A stretch of 64,000 nucleotides of DNA, taken from the NCBI GenBank assembly GCA_965246885.1, contig OZ251992.1, positions 320,001-384,000 of the forward strand, written 5' to 3'. The notes beneath the pieces are model-generated. The model saw only the letters and a program-made list of their open reading frames with translations, did no database searches and was not told the origin of the DNA. This document shows positions 9,421 through 58,529 of the stretch, one piece after another. This DNA comes from Abditibacterium sp. GTDB taxonomy: Bacteria; Armatimonadota; Abditibacteriia; Abditibacteriales; Abditibacteriaceae. Positions within the stretch are counted from its first letter, which is position 1. Each line of letters starts with the position of its first letter. The translations under genes and the position numbers were made by a program.

Positions 9421-9525
9421 CAGACGTCTGTCACTGCGCCACCGACGTCTGCCATTGAGTCCCAGACGTCTGTCACTCGTTCGCCGCCGTCTGTCACTGC
9501 GCCACAGACGCCTGTCGTTGCATCA
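9421..9525. repeat. 21-bp-period tandem array, family A (core CAGACGTCTGTCAC), 5 units
   Basis: Units cagacgtctgtcactgcgcca / ccgacgtctgccattgagtcc / cagacgtctgtcactcgttcg / ccgccgtctgtcactgcgcca / cagacgcctgtcgttgcatca. Confidence 0.9.
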
Positions 9526-9768
9526 CCGGCGCCGGGGGTTGCGCGAGGGTTATCATTCCGTCTTTCACCCGCTTGCCGCTCTTTTTGAGCGACTTTTTGG
9601 CTTAAACCGTCACATAGATTTGTTGGGGGAGGTGTGGTAAAATAGCCGCGCCCCAATTCTTCTTCCTGTGGGGGTTTGACAACGGTTTTTTATTTTTATC
9701 CGGGAACAGTTGGGGGCGGATGACCACCCCCGAAACGGAGCGAGCGGCTTGAAGCGAGGCGCCTTATT

Positions 9769-10476
9769 ATGCACACCTTATTCTCAGCGCGCAAAGCGTT
9801 CACGCTGCAGGAGATTCTGATTGTCATCGCCATCATCGCCATTCTGGCGGCGCTGCTGTTCCCGGCTCTGTGGCGCTCCCGCGAAGGCGCGCGGCGCACC
9901 GCGTGCCAGTCGAACATGAAGCAGATCGGCCTCGCGCTCGTGCAATACGCCCGCGACTACGACGGCGTCAACCCGCCCCGCTATAGCGGCGCCACCCTCG
10001 AAGGCCCCGACAAAAACCCGCTCAACTGGCGCGTCATCCTTTTCCCCTACGTCAAAAGCGCCGGGGTGTATCAGTGCCCTTCCAACCCCGAAAACGGCGT
10101 GAGCGCCACCAACCTCACCACCGCCCCCGCCGGAACGCCCGACCTGCACGTCTCCTACGCTTGCAATTACAACTCCGGCACCGGCTTGGGCGTGTTCTCC
10201 GACGAAACCGGTACTTTCGACCGCACCACCGACGCCTCGTTCCAATACCCCGCCGAAACCATCGCCGTCGCGGAAACCACCTCGACCCGCCCCGACATAG
10301 ACATGGACGACATCGCCCTCTTCGGCAAGCTCTACGCCGGACACATGGACTTTACCAACTACCTGTTCACCGACGGCCACGTCAAAGCGCTGAGGCCCTT
10401 GCAAACCTACTTCGGCGCGAACGGCCAAATCGTCAACCTGTGGACGCGCGACCACTCCGAGTTTCTGCGCGAGTAG
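9769..10476 (+). CDS. Prepilin-type N-terminal methylation / DUF1559 protein with H-X9-DG motif
   Basis: [24 protein letters not shown]...[16 protein letters not shown] and [15 protein letters not shown]. Confidence 0.9.
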
Positions 10477-10516
10477 ACGCCCCCTGCCCCGCTTGTTTTC
10501 CAACCGTTTCACTGCC

Positions 10517-13500
10517 ATGCATCCCTTTTCTTCTGGTGTCATCCGACGCATCGCGCTCCTCTTGGTTCTGCTGGGCGTGATGGGCGCGGGCCGCGCGGCG
10601 CACGCGGCGACTTTTGCGGTGTCCAACTTGAACGATAGCGGCGCCGGGTCGCTGCGCGCGGCCATCACGAGCGCCAACTCCACCGGGGGCGCGAACACCA
10701 TTTCCTTCAACCCCGGCGTGACCGGCACCCTCACGCTGACGAGCGGCGAGTTGGGAATCAGCTCGAACATCAACATTCAGGGGCCGGGCGCCAACGAGTT
10801 GGCGGTAAGCGGCAACAACGTCAGTCGCGTGTTCAACATTTCGAGCGGCACCGTCGCCTTGGACGGTTTGACCATTAGCAATGGGAAGTCAGGCAGTGGT
10901 GGCGGAATCTACAATTTTACGGGCGCAGTCACCCTTTCCAATTGTCAAGTTTCGGGGAACTCTGCTACTGCTGCTGGTGGGGGTATTTATGACTATTTTG
11001 GCAGCTTCAAGCTGATGAACTCCAGCGTGTCGGGTAATTCAGCAACGAACCAAGGCGGGGGTATCTACAGCCTTTATAACACGCTCACTTTGTTGAACTC
11101 CACCGTGTCGGGGAACTCAGCCAATTACGGCGGCGGCCTTTACAACAACTTCAGCACCGTCACCACAGGTAACAGCACAGTAGCCAACAACTCATCTATT
11201 ATAGGCGGTGGATTCTACAATCACTACGGCTCACTCTCTGTTAACAACACCTTGCTGGCCAAAGGCACTTCCGGGGAGAATCTTGCTGTGGATGGCACGA
11301 CTGTCACCTCCAACGGCTACAACCTGAGCGACGACGCGACCGGCCCCACGACGGGAACGGGCGACAGGGTGAACGTGTCGAATTTGAACTTGGGCGCGCT
11401 GGGCAGCAATGGTGGCCCGACGCAAACCTGCGCCCTTCTCGCGGGAAGCGCCGCCATCAATGCGGGCGATCCGTCCGTTACGAGTGGCACTGACCAACGG
11501 GGAACCGGCTTTGCGCGCGTTATCGGTGGGCGCATGGATGTCGGCGCGTTCGAGTTCCATCCCCCAATTACCCCGTCGCTCGTCGTGACGACCCTTGCCG
11601 ATGAAGACGACGGTAACAGCGACCCTTCTGCCGGAAGCGGCACTTCGCTGCGTGAAGCGCTCAACTTCGCGGCGACCCTTGCGGGCACCCCCACCGTCAC
11701 CTTTCAAAGCGGCTTAAGCGGCACCATCACCCTGACGCTCGGCGAGTTGCCTATTGGTTCCAACGTCATCGTTCAAGGGCCGGGCGCGGGCGCGCTTAGC
11801 GTCTCAGGCAACAACGCCAGCCGCGTGTTCAACATCGCGGCGGGCACCGTCACCATTGACGCTTTGACCATCGCTGGCGGCAACGCAACCATTGGCGGAG
11901 GCATCTACTCGGCGGGCACGCTCACGCTGACGAACTGCGCGCTTTCCAACAACACCGCAAGCGCGTCGGGCGCCATCGAGAACAGGGGCACCCTCACGCT
12001 GACGGACTGCACCCTCTCGAACAACAGCGGCGGCTATTACGCCGGAGCCATTCACAACGGCGGCACGGTGTCGCTCAACAGTTGCACCTTGAGCGGCAAC
12101 ACCGCGCCCGGTGCCGATGGCGGCGCTATAGTGAACGAGTCGGGGAACACCCTTATCCTCAATAATTGCACCCTGAACGGCAACTCCTCCGGGCGCTACG
12201 GCGGAGCCATCGCCAACGCTGGTGGCACCGTCAACCTTTACGGCAGCACCCTGAGCGGCAACTCTTCGGCTTACGGCGCGGGCATTTACAACAACTCTTC
12301 CGGCGCCATCAACCTGACCAACTGCACCTTGGCAAACAACGCGGCCACCACCAACGGTGGCGGCATCCGCAACCTGTCCGGCTCGGTCTACATGTCGAAC
12401 TGCACCCTTTCGGGCAACTCGGCGGCGGCTGGCGTTGGTGGCGGCATCGCCAACGCCGATGGCATAGGCTTTTTCAACACCATCCTCGCGGGCAACACCG
12501 CCGCGACCGACCCCGATTTGTCCAACTCCGGCTGGATGTATGGCGACTACGACCTCGTGCAAACCCCCGGCGCGGCCACTGTTCCCGGCACCCACTCCAT
12601 TACCGGCAAAGACCCCAAGCTCGGCCCCTTGGCCAGCAACGGCGGCCCCACGCAGACCTGCGCCCTGCTCGCCGGAAGCCCCGCCATCAACAAGGCCGAC
12701 TCGTCCAACTCGTCGTTCCTCACCTATGACCAACGCGGCGCAGGCTTTGCGCGCGTCGTGGGAGGGGCGGAAGACATCGGCGCCTTCGAGTCTCAAGCCG
12801 TGCCCATCGAGTCGCTCGTCGTCACCACCATCGCCGACGAAGACGACGGCACCAGCGACCCCTCGTATGGAACTGGCACCTCCTTGCGCGAAGCCGTCAA
12901 CTACGCAAACACCCTCGGTGGCCCCTCCACCATCACCTTCGCGCCGAGCGTGACCGGCACCATCAGCCTTTCCAGCACCATCCCGGTTTCCTCGTCCGTT
13001 TCCATCGTCGGGCCGGGCACGAGCGTGCTGGCCGTGAGCGCCGGCACATCGGGCTTTTCGATGTTTTCCATCAACGGCGTTTTCACGGTCAACATGAGCG
13101 GACTTACTCTATCTGGCGTCAGTGGCGCCTTCAATGGCGGTGCCATCTACAACAACACGGGCGCCCTGTCCCTCACGGATTGCGTTTTGTCGAACAATCA
13201 GGCCGCGCGCGGCGCGGGCATTTATACCAACTCCGGCAATTTGAGCCTCGTGGACTGCACCCTATCGGGCGACAGCGCCAGTGATGGCGGCGCCGTGTAT
13301 TCTCAAGCCAGTCAGGTCAGAGCATGGTATTGCACCTTTTCGGGCAACACTAACAACATCGAAAGCCAGAACTCGACTTTCTCCTTTGTCGACTCCACCT
13401 TCGCTGGCAATACCAGCACCGGTAGTAGCGCATTCTATAACGTCAACGGCACCGGCAACTTTTCGAGTTGCACCCTCACGGGCAACAGCACCTCATCGTC

Positions 13501-15526
13501 CACTGCGGGCGCGCTCCGCAATTATGGTGGCACCGTCAACGTCAATAACTCCATCGTCGTGGGCAACAGTGGCGGCGCGGGCGATGTCGTGGGCGTCATC
13601 ACCAGTGGCGGCTATAACCTCATCGGCACCGGCGACGTCAGCCAGTTCGCGGGCACGGGCGACCAAACCGGCGTCACGAGCGCCCAAGTCAAGCTCGACG
13701 CCTTGGCCAACAACGGTGGCCCAACGCAAACCTGCAAGCTGCTTTCCGGAAGCATCGCCATTGACGCGGGCGACCCTTCAGTTACCGGCGGCACCGACCA
13801 GCGCGGCGCGGGCTTTGCGCGCGTCAAGAACAGGGCGATGGACGTCGGCGCGTTTGAAGTGCAAGACACCGCGCCCGTCGCCACCGCGCAGAGCGTCACC
13901 GTCGCCGAAAATTCCTCCGTTGCCATCACCCTTGCGGGCACCGACCCACAAGGCGACCCGCTCACCTTTCGCATCGTGAGTGGCCCCGCCAACGGCGCGC
14001 TGTCGGGCACGGCTCCCGGCGTCACCTACACACCGGGCGCCAACTATAACGGCGCCGACTCATTCACCTTCGTGGTCAACAACGGCTACTACGATAGCGC
14101 GCCCGCGACGGTCTCCATCACCGTCACCGAGGTCAACCAAAAGCCCATCGCCAACGATGTTTCCAAAAGCACGGATGAGAACACCGCGCTTTCCTTTCCC
14201 ACCAGCGACTTAACCGCTACGCCCAACGCGCCGGGGCCACCCAACGAGTCGGGCCAGACCCTCATTGTGTCCATAACCTCCGGTTCTACCTCGCACGGAA
14301 CGGTGAACTTGGCGGGCGGCACCATCACCTACACGCCCAACACGAACTACGTCGGTTCCGACTCGTTCGCTTACACCCTCACCGACAACGGCACGACAAA
14401 CGGCGTGCCTGATCCTAAGTCCTCCAACGCCCAAGTGAACATCACTGTTAACCGCGTCAACCAGCCGCCGGTTATCGCGCCTATCGCTGACCAAACCGCT
14501 CTCGTCACCGTGCCCTTCACGTTCACCGCCACCGCCACCGACCCCGAAAACAACGCCCTGACGTGGAGCCTCGACACCTTCCCCACCGGCATGACCATCG
14601 GCGCTTCCACTGGCGTTATTTCCTGGACTCCCGCCGCAGTTGGCGTTTACACGGTCAAGGTGCGCGTCACCGACAACGGCACCCCCATCAACGCTTTCGC
14701 TACCACCAGCTTCCAAATCACCGTTGCCACCGGCGGCGGAAGCACCACCGGGGGAACAACGGGAAGCACCACCGGTTCGACCACTGGAGGGACAACGGGA
14801 GGAACCACCGGCTCGACCACTGGGAGCACGACGGGTTCGACTACCGGGAGCACGACTGGCTCGACTACGGGAAGTACCACTGGCTCGACTACCGGGAGCA
14901 CGACTGGCGGAACAACCGGCTCCACCACTGGTGGCACAACCGGCTCCACCACTGGTGGCACGACGGGCAGCACCACTGGAAGCACGACGGGTTCGACTAC
15001 AGGTAGCACAACCGGAGGCACCACTGGGGGAACAACGGGTTCCACCACCGGGAGTACGACGGGTGGAACCACCGGCTCCACCACTGGCGGAACCACCGGC
15101 TCCACCACTGGTGGCACGACGGGTGGAACCACCGGGGGCACGACGGGTGGAATCACCGGCTCGACTACTGGCTCCACGACGGGGAGCACTACCGGCTCCA
15201 CTACGGGTGGCACAACGGGAAGCACTACCGGCTCCACTACGGGTGGCACAACGGGAAGCACGACCGGTTCTACAACCGGCTCGACGACAGGCGGAACCAC
15301 CGGGGGAACAACGGGTGGTACAACTGGAAGCACCACCGGAGGCACGACCGGTTCCACTACGGGGGGCACGACCGGCAGTACGACCGGAAGTACCACCGGG
15401 GGCACGACGGGAAGCACCACCGGCGGGACAACAGGGAGCACGACGGGCGGGACAACGCACGCGCCGCATCCCGGTGTGGGCCTTAAAATTCTCAAGGAAG
15501 CGCAGCGAATGTACGCTTCCTCCTGA
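10517..15526 (+). CDS. Large secreted/surface protein: three beta-helix choice-of-anchor-Q/CSLREA-like modules, Ig/cadherin-like domains, Gly/Thr/Ser stalk
   Basis: Signal peptide ending AAHA-A; three modules (S/T)LR(A/E)A...NGGPTQT...DQRG...D(V/I)GAFE; YTP..NY.G.DSF repeats; C-terminal G(S/G)TT tract. Confidence 0.85.
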   Translation: MHPFSSGVIRRIALLLVLLGVMGAGRAAHAATFAVSNLNDSGAGSLRAAITSANSTGGANTISFNPGVTGTLTLTSGELGISSNINIQGPGANELAVSGNNVSRVFNISSGTVALDGLTISNGKSGSGGGIYNFTGAVTLSNCQVSGNSATAAGGGIYDYFGSFKLMNSSVSGNSATNQGGGIYSLYNTLTLLNSTVSGNSANYGGGLYNNFSTVTTGNSTVANNSSIIGGGFYNHYGSLSVNNTLLAKGTSGENLAVDGTTVTSNGYNLSDDATGPTTGTGDRVNVSNLNLGALGSNGGPTQTCALLAGSAAINAGDPSVTSGTDQRGTGFARVIGGRMDVGAFEFHPPITPSLVVTTLADEDDGNSDPSAGSGTSLREALNFAATLAGTPTVTFQSGLSGTITLTLGELPIGSNVIVQGPGAGALSVSGNNASRVFNIAAGTVTIDALTIAGGNATIGGGIYSAGTLTLTNCALSNNTASASGAIENRGTLTLTDCTLSNNSGGYYAGAIHNGGTVSLNSCTLSGNTAPGADGGAIVNESGNTLILNNCTLNGNSSGRYGGAIANAGGTVNLYGSTLSGNSSAYGAGIYNNSSGAINLTNCTLANNAATTNGGGIRNLSGSVYMSNCTLSGNSAAAGVGGGIANADGIGFFNTILAGNTAATDPDLSNSGWMYGDYDLVQTPGAATVPGTHSITGKDPKLGPLASNGGPTQTCALLAGSPAINKADSSNSSFLTYDQRGAGFARVVGGAEDIGAFESQAVPIESLVVTTIADEDDGTSDPSYGTGTSLREAVNYANTLGGPSTITFAPSVTGTISLSSTIPVSSSVSIVGPGTSVLAVSAGTSGFSMFSINGVFTVNMSGLTLSGVSGAFNGGAIYNNTGALSLTDCVLSNNQAARGAGIYTNSGNLSLVDCTLSGDSASDGGAVYSQASQVRAWYCTFSGNTNNIESQNSTFSFVDSTFAGNTSTGSSAFYNVNGTGNFSSCTLTGNSTSSSTAGALRNYGGTVNVNNSIVVGNSGGAGDVVGVITSGGYNLIGTGDVSQFAGTGDQTGVTSAQVKLDALANNGGPTQTCKLLSGSIAIDAGDPSVTGGTDQRGAGFARVKNRAMDVGAFEVQDTAPVATAQSVTVAENSSVAITLAGTDPQGDPLTFRIVSGPANGALSGTAPGVTYTPGANYNGADSFTFVVNNGYYDSAPATVSITVTEVNQKPIANDVSKSTDENTALSFPTSDLTATPNAPGPPNESGQTLIVSITSGSTSHGTVNLAGGTITYTPNTNYVGSDSFAYTLTDNGTTNGVPDPKSSNAQVNITVNRVNQPPVIAPIADQTALVTVPFTFTATATDPENNALTWSLDTFPTGMTIGASTGVISWTPAAVGVYTVKVRVTDNGTPINAFATTSFQITVATGGGSTTGGTTGSTTGSTTGGTTGGTTGSTTGSTTGSTTGSTTGSTTGSTTGSTTGSTTGGTTGSTTGGTTGSTTGGTTGSTTGSTTGSTTGSTTGGTTGGTTGSTTGSTTGGTTGSTTGGTTGSTTGGTTGGTTGGTTGGITGSTTGSTTGSTTGSTTGGTTGSTTGSTTGGTTGSTTGSTTGSTTGGTTGGTTGGTTGSTTGGTTGSTTGGTTGSTTGSTTGGTTGSTTGGTTGSTTGGTTHAPHPGVGLKILKEAQRMYASS
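14738..15457 (+). repeat. Coding 12-bp-period repeat, 60 x G(S/G)TT
   Basis: 720 nt in frame encoding GSTT/GGTT (one GGIT) with extensive synonymous variation. Confidence 0.9.
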
Positions 15527-17086: not shown

Positions 17087-17135
17087 GACCAACGCTCGCG
17101 CAAGCGAGAGGGCAGGCACGACCTGTTCAGCCTGT

Positions 17136-17225
17136 GCCACTGCGCGACAGAGCCGCGCCACTGCGCGACAGAGCCGCGCCACTGCGCGACAGAGCCGCGC
17201 CACTGCGCGACAGAGCCGCGCCACT
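17136..17225. repeat. 21-bp perfect tandem repeat, family B (gccactgcgcgacagagccgc x4 plus partial)
   Basis: Four identical copies in the intergenic space. Confidence 0.95.
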
Positions 17226-17317
17226 CGGCGGTGAGGCGATGGCAGAAGGAGAAAGAAGCCATACACTGAACGCGAAGGCTCCGCTTTCCTTTCTTTCTTC
17301 ATTTGAAACCATCCGCC

Positions 17318-20307: not shown

Positions 20308-23300
20308 CTACCCGGCCTTAGCCGCCGTAAGCGCGAGCAACGCCGGGACGCCGCGCCGGTCGGCGCCGTAGCCGAAGTCAATGGTCGTGATTTCCACGTC
20401 GGGACGCGGGTTGTTCCACTGCATCGAATACGCGACGGCGCTTTGGTCAGTTCCGGCATAGGGCGCCACCCACGCGACCTGCGCGCCCGGAAGCGCCGCA
20501 ACAGGCGCGCTCTGCTTGTACGAATCCACATTCACTTGCGAGTAGACCGGGATGTTGACCGTTTGGCCGTCGGCGTAGTGGACGGTGTAGCGCGCCATTT
20601 CAAAGCGGCGACCATTCTTGCGGTCGTCGTCGTTCATCGGGCTGTCAATGCGCGCGGCCTGCAAGAAGAACAGCGCGTCCGCCTTCTGGCCGACCGGAAT
20701 ACCGCTCACATGGTCGGCCAGATTGCCCGGAACGCCGCCCCCACCGAGGATGACCGCCGTCGGCACGGGCGAAGTCTTGAAGTCGTAAATGTTGTAGCGC
20801 ACCCCCGCGAAGGTCTGGGCGCCCGTTGGCAACGCCGCGAAAGAGAAAGCCCGGTCGCCGAACCACCCCCCTTCTCCCCGGTAAGCGTTCGCCGCTTTGC
20901 CCAAGTCAACCGGCGTATACGCGAGGTTCGCTCCCGCGATGATGGTTTTCCCGCCGCTAAAGGGCGCGTGCAGATTGCGCAACAGGGCCGCCAGAATCGC
21001 CCGCTTTTTGCCCATGTTCTCCGGCACCGCTTCCGTATCCTTGTACAACACATTGTTCAGCACGAGGCCGCCCGGCCCTTGCGGGTATTCGACGAGCGCC
21101 CCGATGTTGAGCAGGGGCCGCACCTTTTGCGCGAAGTCGGCGGGTCGTTGGGCGAAAAGGGAAATGTTGTCAATGCCCAAATTCGGCGTAACGCTGGGAC
21201 GGGTTTCCCAGCCCGCGAGTTGCAGCGTGATGTCTTTGGCGCGGCGCGGCGGGTTGATGTCGAAAGTCTGCGCTTCGCCGTTAGGCACCGTGTTGAACGT
21301 GACCGTCCCATCGGGGAACACGAGGTTCACCTTGGTCGAGGCGAAGTAGTTCGTGTTGCCAATCCACGTCCAACGGCGGATGGTCTCCTCCTTCGGCAGG
21401 GAGATGGGGATGTCGAACGGCTTGCCGTCCTTGGGCGCGTCGAAGTTGATGATAAGGGGCCAGCCGTCGGCGTTGGTGAAGTTGTTGACGATGTTGCCAT
21501 ACGCCCAAAACGGCGACTTGCCAAACGGCGCGACGTCCTCCAAGTCCACGACATACGAAAAGGCGTCCTCGGCGGGATACTCCCCGGCCTGCCAGTCGAA
21601 GATGCGCTTGCCGCTTCCCATCACGATGTCCGAGGTGGACAGCCCCGCCGTGATGGGGCTACGCACCGCCGGAAACGTGACCTTCTCGCGCCCAAAGGGG
21701 CGCAGAACGTGGTTGAAGCCGACCAGCGTGTTGTACGCGGCGAGGCCATCCGGCGTCAGGTTGTTGAACACAATCCAGCCGCCGCCCGAAGTAAACGCCT
21801 TGACTTTGACGGTGTTGGCGGCGAGCGCCTGCAAATTGGCGGGCGAAGCGTCCATCACGGCAACCGAGCCGGACTTATTCAAGGCGGCGAGGGCATCCCC
21901 GGCCTTCTCGTATTGCACGCCGAGCGCGTCCATCGCTTTGGCAAGCGGCGCGTTGTCGCTTGCCACGAGGGTGACGGGATGAAAGACCAGCTTGTAGCTC
22001 GCGCCGTAGCCAATCATGTTCGCCAGCAGTTGCGCCGCGACGGGATTAGTGCCGAGCTTTTCGCCCACTGTCAGTTGCGACAACAGCATTAACCCCTGCC
22101 CCGCCGGAACTTCCACCAAGGCCGTCGAGCGCAGTCCGTCCTCGACCTGCAACAACGAGCGCCCGCCACTCGTGGGTTTGTCGTAGGCGTTGCGATACAA
22201 GACCGAGTCCGGCCCCCACGTTTGGAAGTCGCGCGCCCTCAGGCCGCGAAACACCGGATTGTCCAAGTCTTCGGGAAAGCCGATGCGCCCCTCGTTGCTT
22301 CCCGTCGCCATTTGCGCGGGCGTCGCTTGATAATGGAGCGGGTTCTTTTGCTCCAACACAATCACCGTCCGTCCGCTCGCCGCCCACGCCGCGAGCGCGC
22401 TCGATGTGCTCTGCGCCGCATCGAGCGCGTCTTTGCCGACGACCAGCACCTTGCCCGCATCGGGCAAGCTGTCCAGCCCCGCCAGCGCGGTGAACGGCAC
22501 CGACCGGCTTTGCAAAAACGCTTTCACCGTTCCAAGCGGATCGAATACCAGCAGGCCAGTCGCCGCCGTCCGCGAGCCAGTGACAGACGTGCGGGAATGG
22601 ATGGCGGACGTCTGGGACGCGACGACAGACGTGCGGGAATGAATGGCGGACGTCTGAAACTCATTCCCGGACGTCTGTCGAGCAGTGACGGATGTCTGGG
22701 AATGGACGGCGGACGCCGCTACTCGCACCGGGGGAAGAACGGACAGGGGCTTTTCGTCGCGGAACACTTCGCGTCCGTCTTTGGATAGCGAAAGCAGCAG
22801 CGTCCCCTCTTGGCGGGCGGCAACCGTCGGCATCGGGAGGGTGTCGTCGAACTTGCGGTTGGAGCCGGGCGCAAGAGTGGCCAGCGTGGTCTTGGACGCG
22901 ACCTTCTTGCCGTCAAGGGTGAGCGTCCACGTGAAGGAAAGCGGCTGCGTTTCGTGCGTGTCGTTGAAGATGCCGTAGGTGCGCTTGACCTTTTGGCCGG
23001 AGCCGAAGGAGGAGTCCCACTGGCGTTGCAAAACGGCGATGGGTTGCCACGAGTTGTAATACGCGCCGTCGGCGCTGCCCCACAGATGGAAAGCGGCGAC
23101 GCCGCTCCAGCGCATGCCCTCGGTCAGCATTTTGGAAATCAGGCCAACAGCCGGGCGCGCTTCGGCTTTGCCGAGCATGGCGCTCTCGCCACCTGCCGCC
23201 GCGAGCGTGGACAGGTTGTAGCCGTTGGAGTAAAAGACCTCGCCGAAAAAGAGCGGCTTTTGTTTTGTGATGGGCCAGCCCTGCGCGTGCGCGATTTGGG

Positions 23301-25446
23301 CGGACGGGAAGCCGAGGTTGTAACCCCAGTCGGGCAGTTGGCCCATTCCCGGCTCGATGTAGTGGATGCCGTAAACGGGCAAGGACTCATCGCCCAGCGC
23401 GTTGCCGCCGTCTAGCATCTGGGGGCGCGTCGGGTCAACTTGAGCGACGAGGTCGGCGCCCGTCTTGATGAACGGCGCGCTTTGCGGGGTGGGGCCGCGC
23501 CCGCGCCCGTCGTTGTCGTTGATGTAGGTGACTTCGTTCTCGATGCTCCAGATAAAGATGGAGGGGTGGTTGCGCTGCCCCTTGGCCCAAGCCGCGAGTT
23601 GGGTGTGCCAGTTGGCGAACAGCGCGGGGGTCAGGGTGTAATTGACGCCCTCGCCATCGAAAATGCCGGTGCGCCGCACGTTCATGCCGTGCGCGTCGAA
23701 AAAGTCGAGCGCCGCTTCGGGCGAAGCCAGTTCGTGCCAGCCGCCTTCGCCCCACAAGCGCACCATGTTGATGCCGCGCTTTTTAAGGCCCGCCAAGTCG
23801 CTTTGGGCATCGCTTCCAAACGAGGCGGTGTCGGCGCGGCCATACCAGTTGACGCCGTTGAGCTTGAAATCCGTGCCGCTCCAATCCCACTCGCGGAAGC
23901 CGAACTTGGTGGCGCGCTCGTCTACAGGCTTGCCACCATCGGCGAGGGTGGTGACGACTTGGTACTGCTGCGGGTGCGCGTCGTCGGGCCACCATAGTTT
24001 CGGGTTGGCCCACGCTTCGCTGAGCTTGACGACCTGCTCGGAGTTGGGCGCGAGGGTGACGGTGCGCGGCGCAAAGGTCTTCTCGGCTTTGCCGCCGCCC
24101 AACGGCACGACTTCGTTGCCCACGCTCACGGTGAGCGGCGCATCGGTCGGGTTATTAAGCGTGACTTCCAAGCCGAGGGTCTTGTTTTTGACCGAGGGAA
24201 TGGCGAAGACGTCCGAAGCATAGGCGCGGCCCGCCACGACAAGGGTGGGGGTTTGCAGGATGCCGTTGTCGGCGTGGTTCCACACGGGAAAATCGAACGC
24301 TTGCGAGATAAAGTTCTTCGAGGTAATCCAGTCGGTGGGAATGACAAAGCGGGTGCGCGCGTTGTTACCGCCGTCGGGCGTCAGGCCATAGTAGGTGTCC
24401 TTGATGCCAACCCACACTTCGTTGGTCTGGCCGGGTTTAATCGCTTTAGTGACGTCGCAATCCCACACCGCCAAGGGCGCTTTCGTCGTGCCGCACAGTT
24501 GCCCGTTGACGAAAACGCTGCCCAACATGTTGACGGCGGGCAAGTGCAACACGAACGAGCGGCCCGCCGCTTCTGCGGGAACCGCGACGCGCGTCCGCAA
24601 AAAGTAGCGGTGCGCGAAGGTGAGATCGGGGCGCTCGCGGTTGCGGTCGCCCGGCACGGCCATCGCGCGCCAGTTCAAGGTATCGGCGGCGGGCGCGGTG
24701 CGGATCGGCTCCGTCCTGTCCTGAACGAGGCCCTCGTCCCAGCGCCCGATTTGCCATTGCCCCGCGAGCGAGGTCGCCGTTTGAGCCGCGCCATCGGGCG
24801 CCTTCAAGGAGAACACCTGCGCTCCCGCCGCGCGGTCGGCGTCGGTCTGCCAACCCTTATCGCCCGGCTTGAACTTGCCGTTGGGGTGCCAGTCGCCCTT
24901 CACGACGGCGAGGGCGTCACCCACGTAGTGAATCTTTTGTGGTTTGCCGTCGGCGCCGTGCGCGTTGATGCGAATACGGAGGGTGTGCTTGCCCGCCGTC
25001 AAGTCCGCCTCGCCCATCGAAAGCCACGAGATGTGCGTCCAAAACGCGAGTTCCGTCAGGTCAAAGGTGGGGGCGTCGCGCCCGACCGACTGCCACGCGC
25101 CGCCGTCTACTTGGAAATCGAACGGCGGGCGGTCTACCTCGAAACCCAAACGGTTCCAGAAATGATAGTGCCCCGCCGAGGGCGCGCTGAAATCGTAGTC
25201 GAGCAACACGCCCTCTTTGGGGACGGTCTTTTCGACATCCTTGTCTTCTATATTGACGTTTAGCCAAGCATCGCCCGACATCGCGCCGCCAAAAGCATCG
25301 GCCTTGACGGGAACGTTGGCGTGCGTGGGCGCTTCGCCCTCAATCCAAGCGAAATCGGCGGCGTTCGCCGCTTTGCTCGCGCCGATGCCAAGGAACAAAA
25401 CCAAAGCCGCCCATCGGCGCGCGGAAGAAGTGCGAGGAGTATTCAT
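20308..25446 (-). CDS. Large secreted glycoside hydrolase family 2-like (beta-galactosidase-like) multidomain protein
   Basis: Start MNTPR with signal peptide; VFVNGQ, PKLWWP, FGFRE, NHPSIFIWSIENE acid/base motif, PLFFGE. The track's upstream extension to 25587 is probably not coding. Confidence 0.8.
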   Translation of the reverse strand: MNTPRTSSARRWAALVLFLGIGASKAANAADFAWIEGEAPTHANVPVKADAFGGAMSGDAWLNVNIEDKDVEKTVPKEGVLLDYDFSAPSAGHYHFWNRLGFEVDRPPFDFQVDGGAWQSVGRDAPTFDLTELAFWTHISWLSMGEADLTAGKHTLRIRINAHGADGKPQKIHYVGDALAVVKGDWHPNGKFKPGDKGWQTDADRAAGAQVFSLKAPDGAAQTATSLAGQWQIGRWDEGLVQDRTEPIRTAPAADTLNWRAMAVPGDRNRERPDLTFAHRYFLRTRVAVPAEAAGRSFVLHLPAVNMLGSVFVNGQLCGTTKAPLAVWDCDVTKAIKPGQTNEVWVGIKDTYYGLTPDGGNNARTRFVIPTDWITSKNFISQAFDFPVWNHADNGILQTPTLVVAGRAYASDVFAIPSVKNKTLGLEVTLNNPTDAPLTVSVGNEVVPLGGGKAEKTFAPRTVTLAPNSEQVVKLSEAWANPKLWWPDDAHPQQYQVVTTLADGGKPVDERATKFGFREWDWSGTDFKLNGVNWYGRADTASFGSDAQSDLAGLKKRGINMVRLWGEGGWHELASPEAALDFFDAHGMNVRRTGIFDGEGVNYTLTPALFANWHTQLAAWAKGQRNHPSIFIWSIENEVTYINDNDGRGRGPTPQSAPFIKTGADLVAQVDPTRPQMLDGGNALGDESLPVYGIHYIEPGMGQLPDWGYNLGFPSAQIAHAQGWPITKQKPLFFGEVFYSNGYNLSTLAAAGGESAMLGKAEARPAVGLISKMLTEGMRWSGVAAFHLWGSADGAYYNSWQPIAVLQRQWDSSFGSGQKVKRTYGIFNDTHETQPLSFTWTLTLDGKKVASKTTLATLAPGSNRKFDDTLPMPTVAARQEGTLLLSLSKDGREVFRDEKPLSVLPPVRVAASAVHSQTSVTARQTSGNEFQTSAIHSRTSVVASQTSAIHSRTSVTGSRTAATGLLVFDPLGTVKAFLQSRSVPFTALAGLDSLPDAGKVLVVGKDALDAAQSTSSALAAWAASGRTVIVLEQKNPLHYQATPAQMATGSNEGRIGFPEDLDNPVFRGLRARDFQTWGPDSVLYRNAYDKPTSGGRSLLQVEDGLRSTALVEVPAGQGLMLLSQLTVGEKLGTNPVAAQLLANMIGYGASYKLVFHPVTLVASDNAPLAKAMDALGVQYEKAGDALAALNKSGSVAVMDASPANLQALAANTVKVKAFTSGGGWIVFNNLTPDGLAAYNTLVGFNHVLRPFGREKVTFPAVRSPITAGLSTSDIVMGSGKRIFDWQAGEYPAEDAFSYVVDLEDVAPFGKSPFWAYGNIVNNFTNADGWPLIINFDAPKDGKPFDIPISLPKEETIRRWTWIGNTNYFASTKVNLVFPDGTVTFNTVPNGEAQTFDINPPRRAKDITLQLAGWETRPSVTPNLGIDNISLFAQRPADFAQKVRPLLNIGALVEYPQGPGGLVLNNVLYKDTEAVPENMGKKRAILAALLRNLHAPFSGGKTIIAGANLAYTPVDLGKAANAYRGEGGWFGDRAFSFAALPTGAQTFAGVRYNIYDFKTSPVPTAVILGGGGVPGNLADHVSGIPVGQKADALFFLQAARIDSPMNDDDRKNGRRFEMARYTVHYADGQTVNIPVYSQVNVDSYKQSAPVAALPGAQVAWVAPYAGTDQSAVAYSMQWNNPRPDVEITTIDFGYGADRRGVPALLALTAAKAG
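22580..22720. repeat. 21-bp-period tandem array, family A, located in-frame inside the GH2-like gene
   Basis: Units gtgacagacgtgcgggaatgg / atggcggacgtctgggacgcg / acgacagacgtgcgggaatga / atggcggacgtctgaaactca / ttcccggacgtctgtcgagca / gtgacggatgtctgggaatgg; encodes heptads such as QTSVTAR, QTSAIHS, RTSVVAS. Confidence 0.88.
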
Positions 25447-25569: not shown

Positions 25570-25598
25570 ACCCGCGACGAAGAACACGACTTCCCGCC
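25570..25598 (+). repeat. FN3-like gene-end remnant, copy A (short)
   Basis: acccgcgacgaagaacacgacttcccgcc (TRDEEHDFPP), matching copies at 26244, 26516 and 27197. Confidence 0.8.
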
Positions 25599-25600
25599 GA

Positions 25601-25981
25601 TTAGGGGTAGGGCAACAGGTTCAAGCCGCCAATGAATTTGTAGTCGCGCTGGTTTTTGGAGATGAGCGGTTCGCCGTGAATGAGAGCCGTTGCTGCGATG
25701 AGGCTGTCGGCGATGAGTAAGCCGTGACTAAGGCGGTAAAGACGCAGCAACTCGACCGACTTGTCCGAGACCGCTTCGTCCAACGGCAGAATTTGGAACT
25801 GCTTCAGGAACCCGTCGAGGGCGCCGAGTTCGCCCTTGTTGCGGACGCCGACCAAAAGTTCCATCTGCGTCACAACACTGATGGCGGGGGAGGAGTTCTG
25901 CTGGATGCCCTTCAAACAATCGAGCGCCTCTGGGCCGCCGCGTCCGGCATCAATGAGAATGTCGGTGTCAATGAGGGTCAC
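25601..25981 (-). CDS. vapC: PIN-domain toxin (VapC family)
   Basis: GTG start overlapping antitoxin stop; LIDTDILID, S..TQMELL.G, IADSLIAATAL, SKNQRDY. Confidence 0.9.
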   Translation of the reverse strand: MTLIDTDILIDAGRGGPEALDCLKGIQQNSSPAISVVTQMELLVGVRNKGELGALDGFLKQFQILPLDEAVSDKSVELLRLYRLSHGLLIADSLIAATALIHGEPLISKNQRDYKFIGGLNLLPYP

Positions 25982-26208
25982 GATTCGCCCCACTCCGAGC
26001 GGCGCAACTCGCGCACGAACCCGGTGCTGTCTTCCATCTCGCCCCGGTCGCGCCACATTCCGATGAACGGCTCGTCTTCCAGAGGTGCGGACGGTGCCAC
26101 CGCCGCCCGCGCGTGTTTGAAGCGCAAAAACGCGACGAACTCATCCACTTGGCGCCGCGCTTCGGGCGGCAACGCGCCATATTCTTCCGTGATACTCTGG
26201 GCTGTCAT
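25978..26208 (-). CDS. Putative antitoxin (DUF2281-like)
   Basis: 76 aa; LPPEARRQVDEFVAFL and FIGMWRDR; coupled to the PIN gene. Confidence 0.8.
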   Translation of the reverse strand: MTAQSITEEYGALPPEARRQVDEFVAFLRFKHARAAVAPSAPLEDEPFIGMWRDRGEMEDSTGFVRELRRSEWGES

Positions 26209-26243
26209 GCCTTCCAGTGTGGCCCAAACAAAACCGAACTTCA

Positions 26244-26280
26244 ACCCGCGCCGAAGAACACCCCCTCCCGCCCGGAACAG
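26244..26280 (+). repeat. FN3-like gene-end remnant, copy B
   Basis: acccgcgccgaagaacaccccctcccgcccggaacag (TRAEEHPLPPGT). Confidence 0.75.
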
Positions 26281-26287
26281 CGCGCAA

Positions 26288-26471
26288 CTTGCCTTGGCCA
26301 ACTGTCAGTTGGCCTTGGCCGATTGTCGTTTGGCCTTGGCCAACCCACTTAATTACTTGGCCAGTTGGCAATTGGCCAACTCATGTCGCCAGTTGACCAA
26401 GGTGCGCCCGCAGTTGGCCAAGGCCAAACGAGACAATCGGCCAAGGCGAACTGACAGTTGGCCAAGGCAAG
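26288..26471. repeat. Long inverted repeat built from 21-bp-period TTGGCCAA units (family C), MITE-like
   Basis: Arm 26288-26344 is the reverse complement of 26413-26471 except for one mismatch and a 2-bp insertion; internal units gccttggccaactgtcagttg / gccttggccgattgtcgtttg. Confidence 0.9.
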
Positions 26472-26515
26472 ATTTGACCTCCTCAGTCGTCGGAGCATGG
26501 CTCCGGGCCAATGGA

Positions 26516-26614
26516 GAAGAACACCCTTTCCCGCCCGGCCAATGGGAAGTCGTCGTTTCCGCCACCAACGCCGCCGGAGATGGCCCGATGTCCAACACCG
26601 TCACCGTCACGTGA
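26516..26614 (+). pseudogene. FN3-like C-terminal remnant, copy C (EEHPFPPGQWEVVVSATNAAGDGPMSNTVTVT*)
   Basis: V.ATNAAG.GP.S resembles the last two strands of a fibronectin type III domain; no plausible start; paralogous to 27197-27310. Confidence 0.7.
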
Positions 26615-26626
26615 ACCACGAAACAA

Positions 26627-26656
26627 AACGGCCCGCCAAGAAATTGGCGGGCTGTT
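26627..26656. terminator. Hairpin, probable bidirectional terminator
   Basis: aacggcccgccaa-gaaa-ttggcgggctgtt between convergent 3' ends. Confidence 0.75.
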
Positions 26657-26662
26657 GTTGGG

Positions 26663-26959: not shown

Positions 26960-27174
26960 ATTCGGGCCAGCAACTGCGCTTTGATGTCGCTCCAAGGCCG
27001 CGCGTCGTGCGGGTTCTCGCGGTATTCGCGGATGGCCTCGCGCAAGTCGGCTTCCTGTTCGGGCGACAAGGGCGGCACTTCTTCTGTGGTCAGTCGCTCG
27101 ATAACCTCGACACGCGCGGCGTCATCCAATTCCATCACGGCTTCAAAGACTTGCTCTTTGGTCAAAACAGGCAT
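26956..27174 (-). CDS. Putative addiction-module antitoxin
   Basis: 72 aa acidic protein; LSPEQEADL...YRENP...RPWSDIKAQL; directly upstream of the toxin. Confidence 0.8.
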   Translation of the reverse strand: MPVLTKEQVFEAVMELDDAARVEVIERLTTEEVPPLSPEQEADLREAIREYRENPHDARPWSDIKAQLLARI

Positions 27175-27196
27175 ACCTTTATTTTACCCCGCCCAA

Positions 27197-27310
27197 ACCC
27201 GCGACGAAGAACCCGACTTGCCGCCAGGAACAGGGGAAGTCGTCGTCCTCGCCACCAACGCGGCGGGCGATGGCCCCTATTCCAACAGCGTCATCGTGAC
27301 GGTTGGGTGA
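27197..27310 (+). pseudogene. FN3-like C-terminal remnant, copy D (TRDEEPDLPPGTGEVVVLATNAAGDGPYSNSVIVTVG*)
   Basis: Diverged direct repeat of copy C, including the downstream gtgaaccacgaaac and hairpin. Confidence 0.7.
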
Positions 27311-30830: not shown

Positions 30831-30886
30831 GATGTGGGGTCTGCTCCCTGCAAATTGAGGGGCGAAGAGGAGTTTAAGAGGGTGCG

Positions 30887-31168: not shown

Positions 31169-31195
31169 GGCGAGGCGTCGGAGTTTATGGGCAGC

Positions 31196-35675: not shown

Positions 35676-36706
35676 AGGCGGTTTCCTCACGGGTGCCCGC
35701 GCGCCGCGCGCCCTTCTCGCCCGCGTTTGGCGCGCTTCTGTGGAAATGCCTCGTGGCGTTGGGGGCGTTTCACGCCCTCGCGCAGTTGCTATATTCTCTG
35801 CCGTTGGAACTATCGCGCACCGACACGGCGCGCGATACCCTCGTGTATTACGACGCCCTGCAACGACTGATGCGCGGCGCGGCGGTGTATCAGCCTTGGC
35901 CCGACTACAACGTGCAAATGACGCCGGGGCGCTTCTTTTACTCGCCCGCGTTTTTGCTACTCCTGCGGCCCCTCGCGGGGCTGGACTTCGTAGGGTTCGC
36001 GCGCGCGTGGACACTGTTGATGCATGGCGCGTTTTGGGCGTACGCCTTTTGCCTTGGTCGCTTGGCGACGGGCAAATGGAACTTCCCCGTCGCCTCCTTA
36101 TATGCGATGGTGGCCAACCTCGTGTTCCAAGGCCACACGGCGCTGTCCATTGGCCAAGCGGAGCCGCTCATGTGGATGCTGTTTGGCTTCGCGCTCGTAT
36201 CGGCGCGCACGCGGGCGGGGTGGCTGGCGTTGGCGACCCTTGTCAAGATTCATCCCTTGTGGTCGCTGTGTTTGGCCTTGGGGCAATCCAAGGGCGCGTG
36301 GAAGTCGGCGCTGCTGTTCGCTCTGCCGGTATTGGCGGCGTCGCTGTGGTTAGTGGGCGCGCGCAACTGGGCGATGTGGTGGCCCGCCACTGCGCCCGTT
36401 GCCTCGCAAGGGACAATGAATCCGGGCAACGTCTCGCTGTCGTTTTTGGTGCTACGGGCGCTGAGTTGGGCCGGGTTATGGAAGGCGAGCGGAACATTGC
36501 CGTTGTGGGCCAAAGCGTGGCTGTCGGCGGGCGCGGTCGGCGGGCCGCTTGGCATGGCTTATGGGTTGCGCCGCCAGTCGCCGGAGTTACGCCTCGCGCT
36601 GGTGGCGTGTGTGGGCGTACTGCTGGCGCCTCTTTGTTGGACGGCGTATCTCCCGCTGCTGTTATTGCCGTGCGCCGTGTGGCAAGGAGCGCGCGTCACG
36701 CGGTGA
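35672..36706 (+). CDS. GT87/DUF2029-like membrane glycosyltransferase, copy 2
   Basis: Same motifs; ATGA overlap with copy 1. Confidence 0.75.
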   Translation: MKAVSSRVPARRAPFSPAFGALLWKCLVALGAFHALAQLLYSLPLELSRTDTARDTLVYYDALQRLMRGAAVYQPWPDYNVQMTPGRFFYSPAFLLLLRPLAGLDFVGFARAWTLLMHGAFWAYAFCLGRLATGKWNFPVASLYAMVANLVFQGHTALSIGQAEPLMWMLFGFALVSARTRAGWLALATLVKIHPLWSLCLALGQSKGAWKSALLFALPVLAASLWLVGARNWAMWWPATAPVASQGTMNPGNVSLSFLVLRALSWAGLWKASGTLPLWAKAWLSAGAVGGPLGMAYGLRRQSPELRLALVACVGVLLAPLCWTAYLPLLLLPCAVWQGARVTR

Positions 36707-36828
36707 CAGACGTACGCCGACGAGTGACAGACATACGCCGACGAGCGACAGACGTCGGCGGAGCAGTGACAGACGTCCCGGACTGAGGCAGAGACGACAG
36801 CGCAAACGTGACAGACGTCTTTATTTGG
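36703..36828. repeat. 21-bp-period tandem array, family A, 6 units
   Basis: gtgacagacgtacgccgacga / gtgacagacatacgccgacga / gcgacagacgtcggcggagca / gtgacagacgtcccggactga / ggcagagacgacagcgcaaac / gtgacagacgtctttatttgg; the first unit supplies the TGA stop of the upstream gene. Confidence 0.9.
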
Positions 36829-48148: not shown

Positions 48149-48150
48149 CA

Positions 48151-48223
48151 CACGTGCGCCGACAATTCCCGCAGTCGCGCCGACAATTCCCGCACGTGCG
48201 CCGACGATTCCCGCAGTCGCGCC
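48151..48223. repeat. 21-bp-period tandem array, family D
   Basis: gcgccgacaattcccgcagtc / gcgccgacaattcccgcacgt / gcgccgacgattcccgcagtc, with partial flanking units. Confidence 0.88.
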
Positions 48224-48337
48224 AGCGACCGCCCGACGACGGCGCAGGCTTGAATCGGGAGAATCATCCTTTGGCGCCAGAAAATCGTCCTTTCGGTCAA
48301 GACGGCGGGCGAGGGAATGGGGAAATTGAAAGGCGCA

Positions 48338-57747: not shown

Positions 57748-57809
57748 GGTTTGGGATGCGGGGTTTGGGTTCTAAACCCTCAATCCTAAACCCGAAATCC
57801 CACACCCGC
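57745..57809. repeat. Heptamer tandem repeats in inverted arrangement
   Basis: tagggtt/tgggatg/cggggtt/tgggttc then aaccctc/aatccta/aacccga/aatccca/cacccgc. Confidence 0.7.
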
Positions 57810-57816
57810 AGCTACT

Positions 57817-58365
57817 ATGGCACAAATCATTGAAACGCCCGACAAAATCGTGGTCGTCACGGGAACGCCGTTCAGTTCGGGCGTGCGCTTGCTCGTTGTC
57901 GGCGCGCTCATGGGCGCGGGCGGGATGTATTATTTCCTGACGAAAGGGCAACCGCAAAAGAAGTTCAAACCGGCGCGCGCCCTGCTGGTGAACCCCGTCA
58001 AGCGCCGGGGTCAGGCGGTTTTAGATGCGGGGCAAGCGAAGTTAGACGACGTGACGGACACCGTTTCGGGCGCCGCTTCGGACGTTCAAGACCGCATGGA
58101 GGACGCGGGCGAAGCGCTCGAAGAACGGGCCAAGAAGTTGCTCGGTCGCATCAAAACGCTCGCCGTCAAAGCCAAAGATTTGGCGCAAACGACGGGCACG
58201 GCGCTCAAGCCGCACCTGCAAGAGGCCATCGAAGAAGGCAAACGTGCCGCCGCCGAAGCACAAGCGCGCCTCAAGCAAGACGTGACGCGCGCCGGAGACC
58301 GCCCCGCCTTGGCCGAGGAAGACGGAGAACTCCCGTCGCAAAAGCCCGATAAACACATCGAATAG
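57817..58365 (+). CDS. YtxH-like helical protein
   Basis: Gly-rich hydrophobic segment then charged helix; AIEEGKRAA. Confidence 0.55.
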   Translation: MAQIIETPDKIVVVTGTPFSSGVRLLVVGALMGAGGMYYFLTKGQPQKKFKPARALLVNPVKRRGQAVLDAGQAKLDDVTDTVSGAASDVQDRMEDAGEALEERAKKLLGRIKTLAVKAKDLAQTTGTALKPHLQEAIEEGKRAAAEAQARLKQDVTRAGDRPALAEEDGELPSQKPDKHIE

Positions 58366-58403
58366 ACGGCGTTCGTCCGCCCACCGCCTCCCCACACCGA
58401 AAT

Positions 58404-58529
58404 CGGGGAGGAAATTACGCCATGCGGGGAGGCGGTAGTGCCGTGCGGGGAGGAATTCTTCCCGTGCGGGGAGGAAATCACGGGACGAGGGGAGGAAATC
58501 ATCGCGTGCGGGGAGGTATTTATCCCACG
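58404..58529. repeat. 21-bp-period tandem array, family E (core GGGGAGG), 6 units
   Basis: cggggaggaaattacgccatg / cggggaggcggtagtgccgtg / cggggaggaattcttcccgtg / cggggaggaaatcacgggacg / aggggaggaaatcatcgcgtg / cggggaggtatttatcccacg. Confidence 0.9.

Follow-up and report, generated by a model that had tools for sequence, protein, structure and literature searches.

Plasmids carry centromere and iteron arrays, among them parC, which is bound by ParR, sopC and the Rep iterons, while the chromosome-wide marks that are read by one protein (DNA uptake sequences, Chi, and the parS, Noc and SlmA sites) are single short motifs. The REP/BIME elements of E. coli are described as hundreds of intergenic palindromic repeats in which BIME-2 are gyrase sites, and the gyrase motif as having a GC period of 10.75 bp (PMC6379681). 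BrickBuilt, a minisatellite MITE of Porphyromonas gingivalis, is described as a dispersed, intergenic and species-restricted element with a 23-nt unit, one unit sequence, a leader and tail, terminal inverted repeats and target duplications, present in 19 copies (PMC4596501). The E. coli chromosome is described as having 400–500 supercoiled domains of ~10 kb (PMC3820752, PMC3420936). Here we report a family of 21-bp repeat arrays from Abditibacterium sp. whose even spacing along the chromosome is the new element of these findings. A full-text literature search, with most subscription journals outside it, found no description of these arrays or of the gene module to which they are related.

An earlier note on the window, the 64,000-nucleotide stretch analysed here, had reported seven arrays starting at 9,421, 17,136, 22,580, 26,291, 36,703, 48,156 and 58,404 that hold an exact 21-bp period with almost no indels. 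We found all seven at these starts and in 21-bp register, and autocorrelation widens them to ~80–200 bp (Table 1); the near absence of indels did not stand for the 26,291 array, which has register slips. As the note had said of most of them, they tend to lie just downstream of a stop codon (5/7 within ~90 bp of an upstream stop), the exceptions being the 22,580 array, inside a GH2 gene, and the 26,291 array, upstream of an antitoxin start. Five of the seven match one shared consensus (scores 6.6–9.1), and only the 26,291 array has a private sequence. The 9,421, 22,580 and 26,291 arrays are letter-identical in short-read contigs of two runs, one of which may be the source sample.

Table 1. Arrays and associated features of the window, with the extents given by Tandem Repeats Finder (TRF)
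Feature	Position	Strand	TRF extent	Context
21-bp array, main family, core CAGACGTCTG	9375..9546		9421-9516	intergenic, after creatininase-family gene; consensus score 7.9
21-bp array, four identical units	17132..17230		17136-17225	intergenic, after HTTM-domain gene; shared consensus, score 9.1
GH2 gene	20308-25404	minus		holds 21-bp array 22549..22717
21-bp array, main family	22549..22717		22586-22654	in frame inside GH2 gene; score 8.3
Remnant A, short third piece of same FN3 stretch	25570..25611	+		29 nt match remnant C at 93%
21-bp array, private sequence, core TTGGCCAA	26285..26470		26291-26344; 26411-26470 (second part)	directly upstream of FN3 remnant B; score -1.4
FN3 C-terminal remnant B	26516..26614	+		27 aa align with remnant C at 74% identity
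FN3 C-terminal remnant C	27158..27310	+		nearest collected protein L099, 58% over 38 aa
21-bp array, main family	36703..36819		36703-36776	at stop codon of GT87-family gene; score 8.4
21-bp array, GCCGAC/AATT variant of shared consensus	48149..48228		48156-48223	after AraC-family gene; score 6.6
21-bp array, GGGGAGG subfamily	58404..58537		58404-58516	score 2.3

The seven-array observation is confirmed, and the phenomenon is much larger than the window. A genome-wide spike at period 21 had been expected, and both the TRF histogram and lag windows show it. The best TRF period was 21 at 218 of 481 tandem-repeat loci, with 42 at 51 loci and 63 at 20, and the nearest competing periods were 18 (34 loci), 15 (33) and 24 (19). 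In the lag windows, lag 21 had 260 loci, compared to 26 for lag 18, 21 for lag 24 and 0–1 for each of lags 19, 20, 22 and 23. This excess goes far beyond chance. We catalogued 256 arrays of this type on the 3.48-Mb contig.

Along the chromosome there is about one array per 13 kb, with a median gap of 12 kb, and the gaps are far more uniform than random placement would give. Their CV is 0.526 over all 255 gaps; only 5 are shorter than 4 kb (65 expected under a Poisson model) and 0 exceed 40 kb (13 expected). The intergenic arrays by themselves have a CV of 0.539, compared to 0.969 ± 0.063 in a permutation of 5000 rounds over 1925 intergenic regions, in which the lowest CV reached was 0.794. REP-like loci of the same genome have a CV of 1.14 and array-free long intergenic regions one of 0.98. 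The 22 in-gene arrays fill holes between the intergenic ones, lying farther from them than random positions do (median 7.7 vs 3.9 kb, p 1.6e-5). Array density is flat, with no empty 200-kb bin and no nucleoid-occlusion-like gap at the terminus; it is level across GC classes (0.60–0.76 per 10 kb), low-GC DNA included, and on contig C2. Gap size is unrelated to the similarity of neighbouring arrays (rho -0.01) and array length to the size of the flanking gap (rho 0.02). Recombination between close look-alike arrays was rejected as the cause of the spacing, neighbours being as alike as random pairs. In two other genomes the array spacing has CVs of 0.43 and 0.49, but each value comes from 8 gaps, some of the repeats are probably coding, and one of the two genomes (G180) has 165 kb without arrays, so these values are too thin to count.

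Even spacing could also arise without benefit to the host. If the arrays were a selfish non-autonomous element, a coated array would likely block insertions within ~5–8 kb, and even spacing would follow; target immunity of this kind is known for Mu, Tn3 and Tn7. Simulated soft exclusion over a radius of 7 kb comes near to the real gap distribution (CV 0.57 ± 0.03 vs 0.53 observed), and with 2.7 ± 1.3 gaps above 40 kb it is also close to the 0 observed. All four exclusion models that were run nevertheless have a longer tail of long gaps than the chromosome does. A ~7-kb insertion exclusion matches the spacing nearly as well as a lattice kept by selection. The relatives of this genome are in agreement with a lineage-specific expansion, as such an element would undergo: the main pattern has at most one match in each of 60 related genomes, close relatives hold 2 plausible arrays in ~431 kb, and one of them, G010, has no arrays in 160 kb. 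Close relatives without the lattice live without it. Viral contigs gave no match to the main pattern. Further points for a selfish element are that some arrays were copied together with their flanks and that arrays avoid intergenic regions with REP-like repeats (5/216 vs 96/664); carriage of the arrays by REP elements was rejected on the same avoidance. Against it, no common flanking family marks the arrays, repeated intergenic 18-mers outside arrays occur near only 5 of them, and exact stretches of at least 30 nt are shared by only 14/256, so most arrays are not simple copies. We regard a selfish element as possible but on the unlikely side.

The in-gene arrays bear on the same question. They use differing reading frames and strands, and in the four genes compared they occupy variable loops. 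In three of the four they add 17–53 aa relative to orthologues, as an inserted element would. In contrast, the GH2 array of the window sits in a linker that is variable and without repeats in 9/9 orthologues, and it replaced this linker without gain in length (240 vs 246 nt in the closest orthologue). The orthologues used to compare filled and empty sites have 45–79% protein identity, too distant for DNA boundaries.

The arrays do not fall into the five unrelated sequence families proposed in the earlier note. One network of exact 16-mers joins 188/256 arrays, compared to 8–19 in controls, and the arrays are a mosaic of dyad-symmetric units. The main-family core is the palindrome CAGACGTCTG, the ideal main unit is TGACAGACGTCTGTCA, and the GGGGAGG core occurs in 16 catalogued arrays, 12 of which also hold the GACGTC core. 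The arrays do not have the make-up of CRISPR or other repeat-spacer arrays, in which a constant repeat alternates with unique ~30-nt spacers beside cas or effector genes: the variable positions are recombined variants common to several arrays, the whole unit is 21 bp, and Rfam has no match in the window. The 21-bp unit is without a dominant 10.5-bp GC or AT signal, and a nucleosome- or gyrase-like 10.5-bp bending code was rejected on this ground; the median array length of 168 bp with margins would suit a ~130-bp gyrase strong site, but the 10.5-bp harmonic is not dominant. Twenty-one base pairs are also seven codons, and several units translate to heptad-like strings, some within genes and in frame, which is what remnants of heptad (coiled-coil) peptide genes would give. 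Column conservation by codon phase (0.80/0.71/0.71) is nevertheless that of the shuffled control, stops are frequent, frames and strands differ among in-gene arrays, and in homologous arrays elsewhere the period is 41 or 22 bp. On these features the heptad-peptide origin is largely refuted, and we give it hardly any credence.

Most arrays (234/256) are intergenic, with a median distance of 24 bp to stops and of 101 bp to starts. This would fit an array that regulates its neighbour genes, as an operator, enhancer or terminator-side element, or that gives rise to a small RNA, either structured or phased; strong predicted RNA folding is indeed common (median z -1.6 in 40 sampled arrays), as it must be for palindromes. 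However, all orientations of the neighbouring genes are used (33 convergent, 52 divergent and 149 tandem sites), an asymmetric core has no orientation bias relative to genes (18 vs 15), no neighbour function common to the arrays was found genome-wide, and the spacing would be left unexplained. Such a role across the genome seems to us quite improbable. The tie to TA modules suggested by two of the window arrays fails genome-wide, with small neighbouring genes at 20% of the 234 intergenic arrays and 30% of comparable intergenic regions, and a search for a conserved neighbouring ORF gave no common family beyond large widespread ones.

A link between the arrays and FN3 remnants had been suspected, and it is supported. 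The 26,291 array precedes remnant B, behind which stands a terminator-like inverted repeat, and the gene here lacks its rod-coding part. L099, the protein nearest to remnant C, is encoded by a helical+FN3 gene of another genome (G019) with its own 21-bp array upstream. The 26,291 array and remnant B probably represent a decayed gene-plus-array cassette. Among full-length homologous loci for helical-rod proteins with or without FN3, drawn from several phyla, 72/85 have an upstream array, compared to 0/11 controls, and 6/84 have a downstream one. In a second rod family an array is found at 10/12 loci examined, and in a third at 11/20. At 4/31 metagenome loci, all of one protein lineage, the core CAGACGTCTG itself makes up the array that precedes a rod+FN3 gene by ~40 bp. 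Periods of 41 bp and 22/44 bp also occur at homologous genes, supporting the reading of 21 bp as about two helical turns; the period in this genome is among the whole-pair-of-turns periods of this array type (21, 22, 41–44 bp), and the units here, like those of the gene-linked arrays, are non-coding and dyad-symmetric (dyad z>2 in 41% of 185 arrays here and 63% of 57 gene-linked arrays). Judged by these sequence features, the 21-bp arrays of this genome are of the type found upstream of helical-rod(+FN3) genes in many bacteria.

In this genome, besides the window remnant, arrays lie directly upstream of rod(+FN3) genes at C1:526358 and C1:1336548, and the array at C1:2848896 is ~650 bp off its rod gene. 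The other ~250 are orphans, and at least three rod genes have no array. Six rod genes are placed in this genome, at C1:525622-526317, 1335829-1336473, 2849921-2851027, 1664364-1665503, 1564568-1565419 and 2317180-2318106. No main-family array was seen upstream of any rod gene found here. Gene-linked arrays have detached relatives, one of them 90% over 398 bp. The rod genes sit among restriction-modification, TA, RAYT-like and RHS genes (labels read by eye), company that would also suit a selfish element. The arrays could instead be left-overs of repeated cassette insertions, in which the gene decays while slippage and gene conversion maintain an array that has no present role. The decayed cassette of the window fits this, as do at least 20 rod genes together with private-sequence orphan arrays in G019 and further orphans in G299 and G180. 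But left-overs predict random or clumped positions, as for the REP-like repeats (CV 1.14), and not the CV of 0.53 seen here, and in profile searches most arrays had no remnant of a gene next to them. We consider this origin improbable.

The structures of two rod proteins were modelled as a helical rod plus FN3 (pLDDT 94.6 and 88.2). The predicted rod has a 53–56-residue helix of ~80 Å, close to the 71 Å of 21 bp of B-DNA; some families are predicted to have one such rod, and others two in the same chain. The median net charge of the rod domain over 127 sequences is -1, so that it is not basic, and a few of its Lys/Arg positions are conserved at 48–67%. The family is large, with 508 cluster representatives at E<=0.001 from one query, and Pfam and NCBIfam gave no family match for the 127 members beyond fn3-like domains. 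The Atlas gave unnamed clusters, with DUF6261 a lead only, at 0.80; a word-based protein search returned the query alone for P0001 and 3 proteins for the long family. A fold search with the doubled rod gave a best Z of 8.9, unspecific for helical bundles, and the two rod modules show weak homology (probability 47.7, E 1.9e-4). A rule that the period doubles with the rod held in four G019 loci and one truncated G029 locus and failed in a 320-aa family; doubled-rod families have no single period rule, with 41 bp in one and 21 bp in another.

We hypothesize, with a probability of roughly 0.4, that rod-protein dimers dock on the arrays as phased platforms and that selection likely keeps these as a lattice over the whole chromosome, with about one site per 13 kb. 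Of the functions suggested in the earlier note, phased protein-binding sites is thus the one we favour. This reading starts from the period, number, even spacing, dyad symmetry and absent codon phase of the arrays, from the array copies detached from the gene, and from the link that this type of array has with rod genes in several phyla. Against it speak the non-basic rod domain, the absence of the main family upstream of any rod gene found here, the close relatives that live without the lattice, the near fit of soft exclusion, the array lengths that do not follow gap size, and the lack of a single period rule among doubled-rod families. A two-fold rod dimer would lie along each palindromic two-turn unit and so coat the array. 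Most bacteria would have the module as a small cassette, probably one that controls the gene it contains; here the arrays would have multiplied without the gene, and the rod genes without an array could act on them in trans. With ~7 kb to each side served by one coated array, redundant neighbours would decay and holes would be filled even inside protein linkers. The likeliest use might be to anchor or insulate supercoiled loops of ~10 kb. It is a tentative and rather doubtful extension that a mobile protein-plus-array cassette was domesticated as a sequence-encoded scaffold, in which ~250 coated two-turn arrays fix loop anchors ~13 kb apart as hard-wired domain boundaries.

Even spacing and a ceiling on gap length (0 gaps >40 kb) would also be produced if the arrays were self-marks or uptake signals, with one bound array per transferable or scanned stretch that protects from a defence nuclease or promotes uptake of own DNA. 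DNA uptake sequences do favour own-DNA uptake, by molecular drive, and the arrays occur in low-GC DNA. On the other hand, 6/6 rod proteins are without a PADLOC match, and the cassettes elsewhere, each with its own sequence beside a single gene, fit local regulation better. A marking role is unlikely, at long odds.

It is unusual for a repeat family to be so strongly under-dispersed along the entire chromosome of a bacterium. Either selection for coverage or some mechanism of exclusion over long distances is needed for this, and each would be new for such an element. If the arrays are docking sites for rod proteins, they would be a new way to mark out a bacterial chromosome. If they anchor loops, the question of what bounds 10-kb supercoiled domains would become directly testable, because each candidate site is located to single-base precision. 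A large unnamed family of proteins serves as putative partners, each beside an array of differing sequence and fixed period, and together they could represent a way of recognising DNA that is retargetable and has so far been overlooked.

Among described systems, the E. coli domains share the length scale (256 arrays, median gap 12 kb), a match that is no evidence of function; the domain papers, in the portions available, name no fixed sequence array as a boundary (PMC3820752, PMC3420936). Like REP/BIME, as described for E. coli, the arrays are hundreds of intergenic palindromic repeats for which chromosome organisation is proposed. Unlike them, they are head-to-tail mosaics and not a family of single or paired 20–40-bp hairpins, and the separate REP-like families of this genome are randomly spaced and avoid them. 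Their 21-bp unit also differs from the 10.75-bp GC period described for the gyrase motif. BrickBuilt resembles them as a dispersed tandem repeat of about two helical turns with changing copy number, and the available text on it reports no even spacing (PMC4596501). In contrast to BrickBuilt as described there, the 21-bp arrays are sequence mosaics, some in frame in genes, and no common leader, tail or terminal inverted repeats were found, with shared 18-mers near 5 arrays and 30-mers in 14/256. The parS and Noc sites are 16-bp palindromes, similar in size to the ideal main unit, and a separate parS-like cluster is present in this genome near C1:477-482 kb; unlike these, SlmA, Chi and uptake-sequence sites, all single short motifs, the arrays leave no gap in any 200-kb bin. 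Plasmid centromeres and iterons differ in their partners, which here are predicted helical rods with or without FN3 and include no RHH, HTH or winged-helix binder family among 127 members. They differ also in setting: a partition NTPase or replication gene is not a fixed neighbour here, and the arrays stand at ~256 places in this genome. Yet, as in plasmid centromeres and iterons, tandem helically phased repeats lie beside the gene for a small, putatively coating protein, and the period is kept while the sequence differs between systems.

All seven arrays described in the earlier note are present in the window, and the spike at period 21 that it proposed checking for is found throughout the source genome (3.56 Mb, two contigs). 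A 21-bp period was the best at 218 of 481 TRF loci, with 51 loci at 42, 20 at 63, 34 at 18 and 19 at 24, and an independent lag test gave 260 loci at lag 21 versus 26 at 18 and 21 at 24. As evidence against assembly error, three of the window arrays recur unchanged in contigs from two public runs, one of them possibly the source sample itself.

We catalogued arrays by motif and period filter, merging those ≤600 bp apart and using gene calls made in this analysis. The larger contig, C1, carries 256 arrays, with gaps averaging 13.6 kb (median 12.1 kb; CV 0.526), and the period test alone, with no motif filter, returned 233 loci at 21 versus 11 at 24 and 18 at 18. Five gaps are shorter than 4 kb and none exceeds 40 kb, compared to Poisson expectations of 65 and 13. 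For the 234 intergenic arrays the CV is 0.539; permuting them 5000 times among the available intergenic regions gave 0.969 ± 0.063. The corresponding values for this genome's 168 REP-like loci, which fall into several families, and for 334 long intergenic regions lacking arrays were 1.14 and 0.98. Array density stays level along the chromosome, between GC classes and on the second contig. This genome-wide regularity is striking, and the even spacing is what is new in this work. The 22 arrays inside genes lie a median 7.7 kb from the nearest intergenic array, versus 3.9 kb for random positions (p 1.6e-5). Comparison with orthologues, made for four genes, places the array in a variable loop each time. 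It adds 17–53 aa in three of them; the GH2 array stands in for a linker and has the same length as the linker of the closest orthologue.

The seven window arrays had been assigned to five unrelated sequence families, an assignment our comparisons overturn. An exact 16-mer is shared with another array by 206 of the 256 catalogued arrays, and 188 are joined in a single network, versus 40–56 and 8–19 when intergenic DNA without arrays was sampled ten times. Supposedly unrelated cores occur together within one array, as they do in the only such array observed in the relative G010. Exact stretches of ≥30 nt are common to only 14 arrays, so the majority of arrays are mosaics, not copies. Aligning 217 intergenic arrays by EM yielded one degenerate consensus (mean score 5.65 versus 1.99 with shuffled columns), ideally the palindrome TGACAGACGTCTGTCA plus five bases, which five of the seven window arrays fit. 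Dyad symmetry of the units reached z>2 in 41% of 185 arrays. The units show no codon-phase conservation, contrary to the suggested seven-codon or heptad-peptide origin; the period keeps step with the helical turn of DNA rather than with codons, and the units have two-fold symmetry.

The evenly spaced lattice is lineage-specific. Among the compared genomes, which are samples and partly incomplete, the commonest array pattern has 131 matches in the source genome and no more than one in any of 60 others; a second has 34 in the source genome, seven in genome G019 and at most two in the other 29. We found two plausible arrays in ~431 kb of relatives' DNA and no array in 160 kb of G010. G019 departs from this, with nine long arrays in 254 kb, most of them next to ordinary genes. 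Such recent, lineage-specific spread agrees with a model in which each insertion excludes others over ~7 kb, and a simulation of this comes close to the observed spacing (CV 0.57 ± 0.03; observed 0.526). However, the observed long-gap tail is shorter than the simulated one and neither a mobilising enzyme nor an element end turned up, so we slightly prefer selection for coverage (probability roughly 0.4) and rate exclusion as only somewhat less likely; coverage selection would account for the missing short gaps, the missing long gaps and the hole-filling arrays inside genes.

Arrays lie 40–75 bp upstream of two source-genome genes, with products of 214 and 231 aa. The 214-aa protein has 508 relatives at E ≤ 0.001 and is modelled (pLDDT 94.6) as a 56-residue helix with a short one on either side, followed by an FN3 domain (Z 14.7, rmsd 1.6, 90 aligned). 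In homologous loci from its phylum and from records whose titles name Verrucomicrobiota, Bacteroidota, Planctomycetota and other groups, 72 of 85 full-length rod genes have an upstream array, although these loci are not independent, several coming from one genome. The script scored 73 for an upstream 21/42-bp array, from which we dropped L093, an N-run artefact; among the 72, the true period is 41 bp in five, and 22/44-bp arrays are present at two loci that the script counted as negative. Downstream arrays occur at 6 of 84 rod-gene loci. Controls, FN3 domains belonging to long proteins, scored 0 of 11. Relatives of the 231-aa protein have the upstream array at 10 of 12 loci (four weak matches fall outside that count), and a third family, with a doubled rod, at 11 of 20 (one false match dropped). 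Some doubled-rod members (~215 aa; L213, L216, L218, L224, L226, L227, L229, L232, L233) contain no FN3; a 21-bp array is nevertheless present at four of these, making the rod the invariant component. Repeat sequence differs locus by locus, and away from the gene arrays are rare (47 module loci, 788 kb).

The source genome contains six or more rod genes, of which three lack an array, and its gene-linked arrays have detached relatives at 70–90% identity. Among 31 metagenome loci, four, which belong to a single lineage, have an array built of the source genome's main core, CAGACGTCTG, ~40 bp ahead of a rod+FN3 gene; the remaining 27 hold coding repeats, two-copy palindromes or arrays with no detected rod gene. 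The 26,291 array is followed by an FN3 remnant; a twin of this remnant matches a protein of the rod+FN3 module at 58% identity over 38 aa.

Features noted in the window (C1:320001-384000) and elsewhere
Location	Feature	Remarks
window 14744-15456	Long Gly/Thr/Ser coding repeat, 12-bp period	End of 1670-aa Ig/beta-helix surface protein; ordinary low-complexity linker
window 25601-27174	Three FN3 remnants and, interleaved with them, two pairs of small genes	PIN toxin + antitoxin; second pair ParE/addiction-module-like by eye
window 27582-28343	DDE transposase	After the FN3 remnants; another copy lies next to a different array at C1:2652888
window 29343-34177	Cluster of msrA, a Pup-ligase gene and two genes for proteasome subunits (Pfam)	Pup/UBact-type proteasome system outside Actinobacteria
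window 38989-39946	HlyD-family gene	21-bp-period signals are coiled-coil heptads; misfit to array consensus
C1 477468-481778	parS-like palindrome cluster	Near GC-skew minimum ~489 kb; likely origin
C1:1335092	IS200/RAYT-like gene (by eye)	Directly downstream of a rod gene
C1 1123297, 1371008, 1507051, 1569502, 2289983, 2308913	AT-richer array subfamily, GGAAGT core, 200-260 bp	No rod gene detected at the six sites; some wrongly called ORFs by the gene caller
G019 L033:1230, L254, L272:12010	Three more protein types, unnamed and apparently helical, each preceded by a 21-bp array	For one, two source-genome homologues without arrays, next to RHS-like or low-GC genes
L354, L357, L363, L365 (metagenome contigs)	Two-copy palindrome pair, 21-bp spacing, divergent promoter	Flanked by amidohydrolase-like and ABC substrate-binding-like genes; probably an ordinary operator

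The partner of the arrays is a predicted rod with a long helix of 53–56 residues. A helix of this size spans ~80 Å, close to the 71 Å of one 21-bp unit. Given the two-fold units, the rod partner and the matching lengths, rod dimers might coat the arrays. Against this, rod charge is neutral, no source-genome rod gene has the main family upstream, and the period rule for doubled rods is inconsistent. The arrays could also anchor loops, the sole basis being a match in scale with the 10-kb domains of E. coli, as given in excerpts of PMC3820752 and PMC3420936.

A full-text literature search found no description of these arrays or their module. We conclude that the arrays are real and part of an undescribed protein-plus-array system, whose protein would bind the array. 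In their working the arrays would most resemble those of plasmid centromeres and iterons, but they fall outside that group on its membership tests. Like REP/BIME (as far as the excerpt of PMC6379681 describes them) and BrickBuilt (likewise from part of PMC4596501), the arrays are dispersed, yet the membership tests of each place them apart from both.
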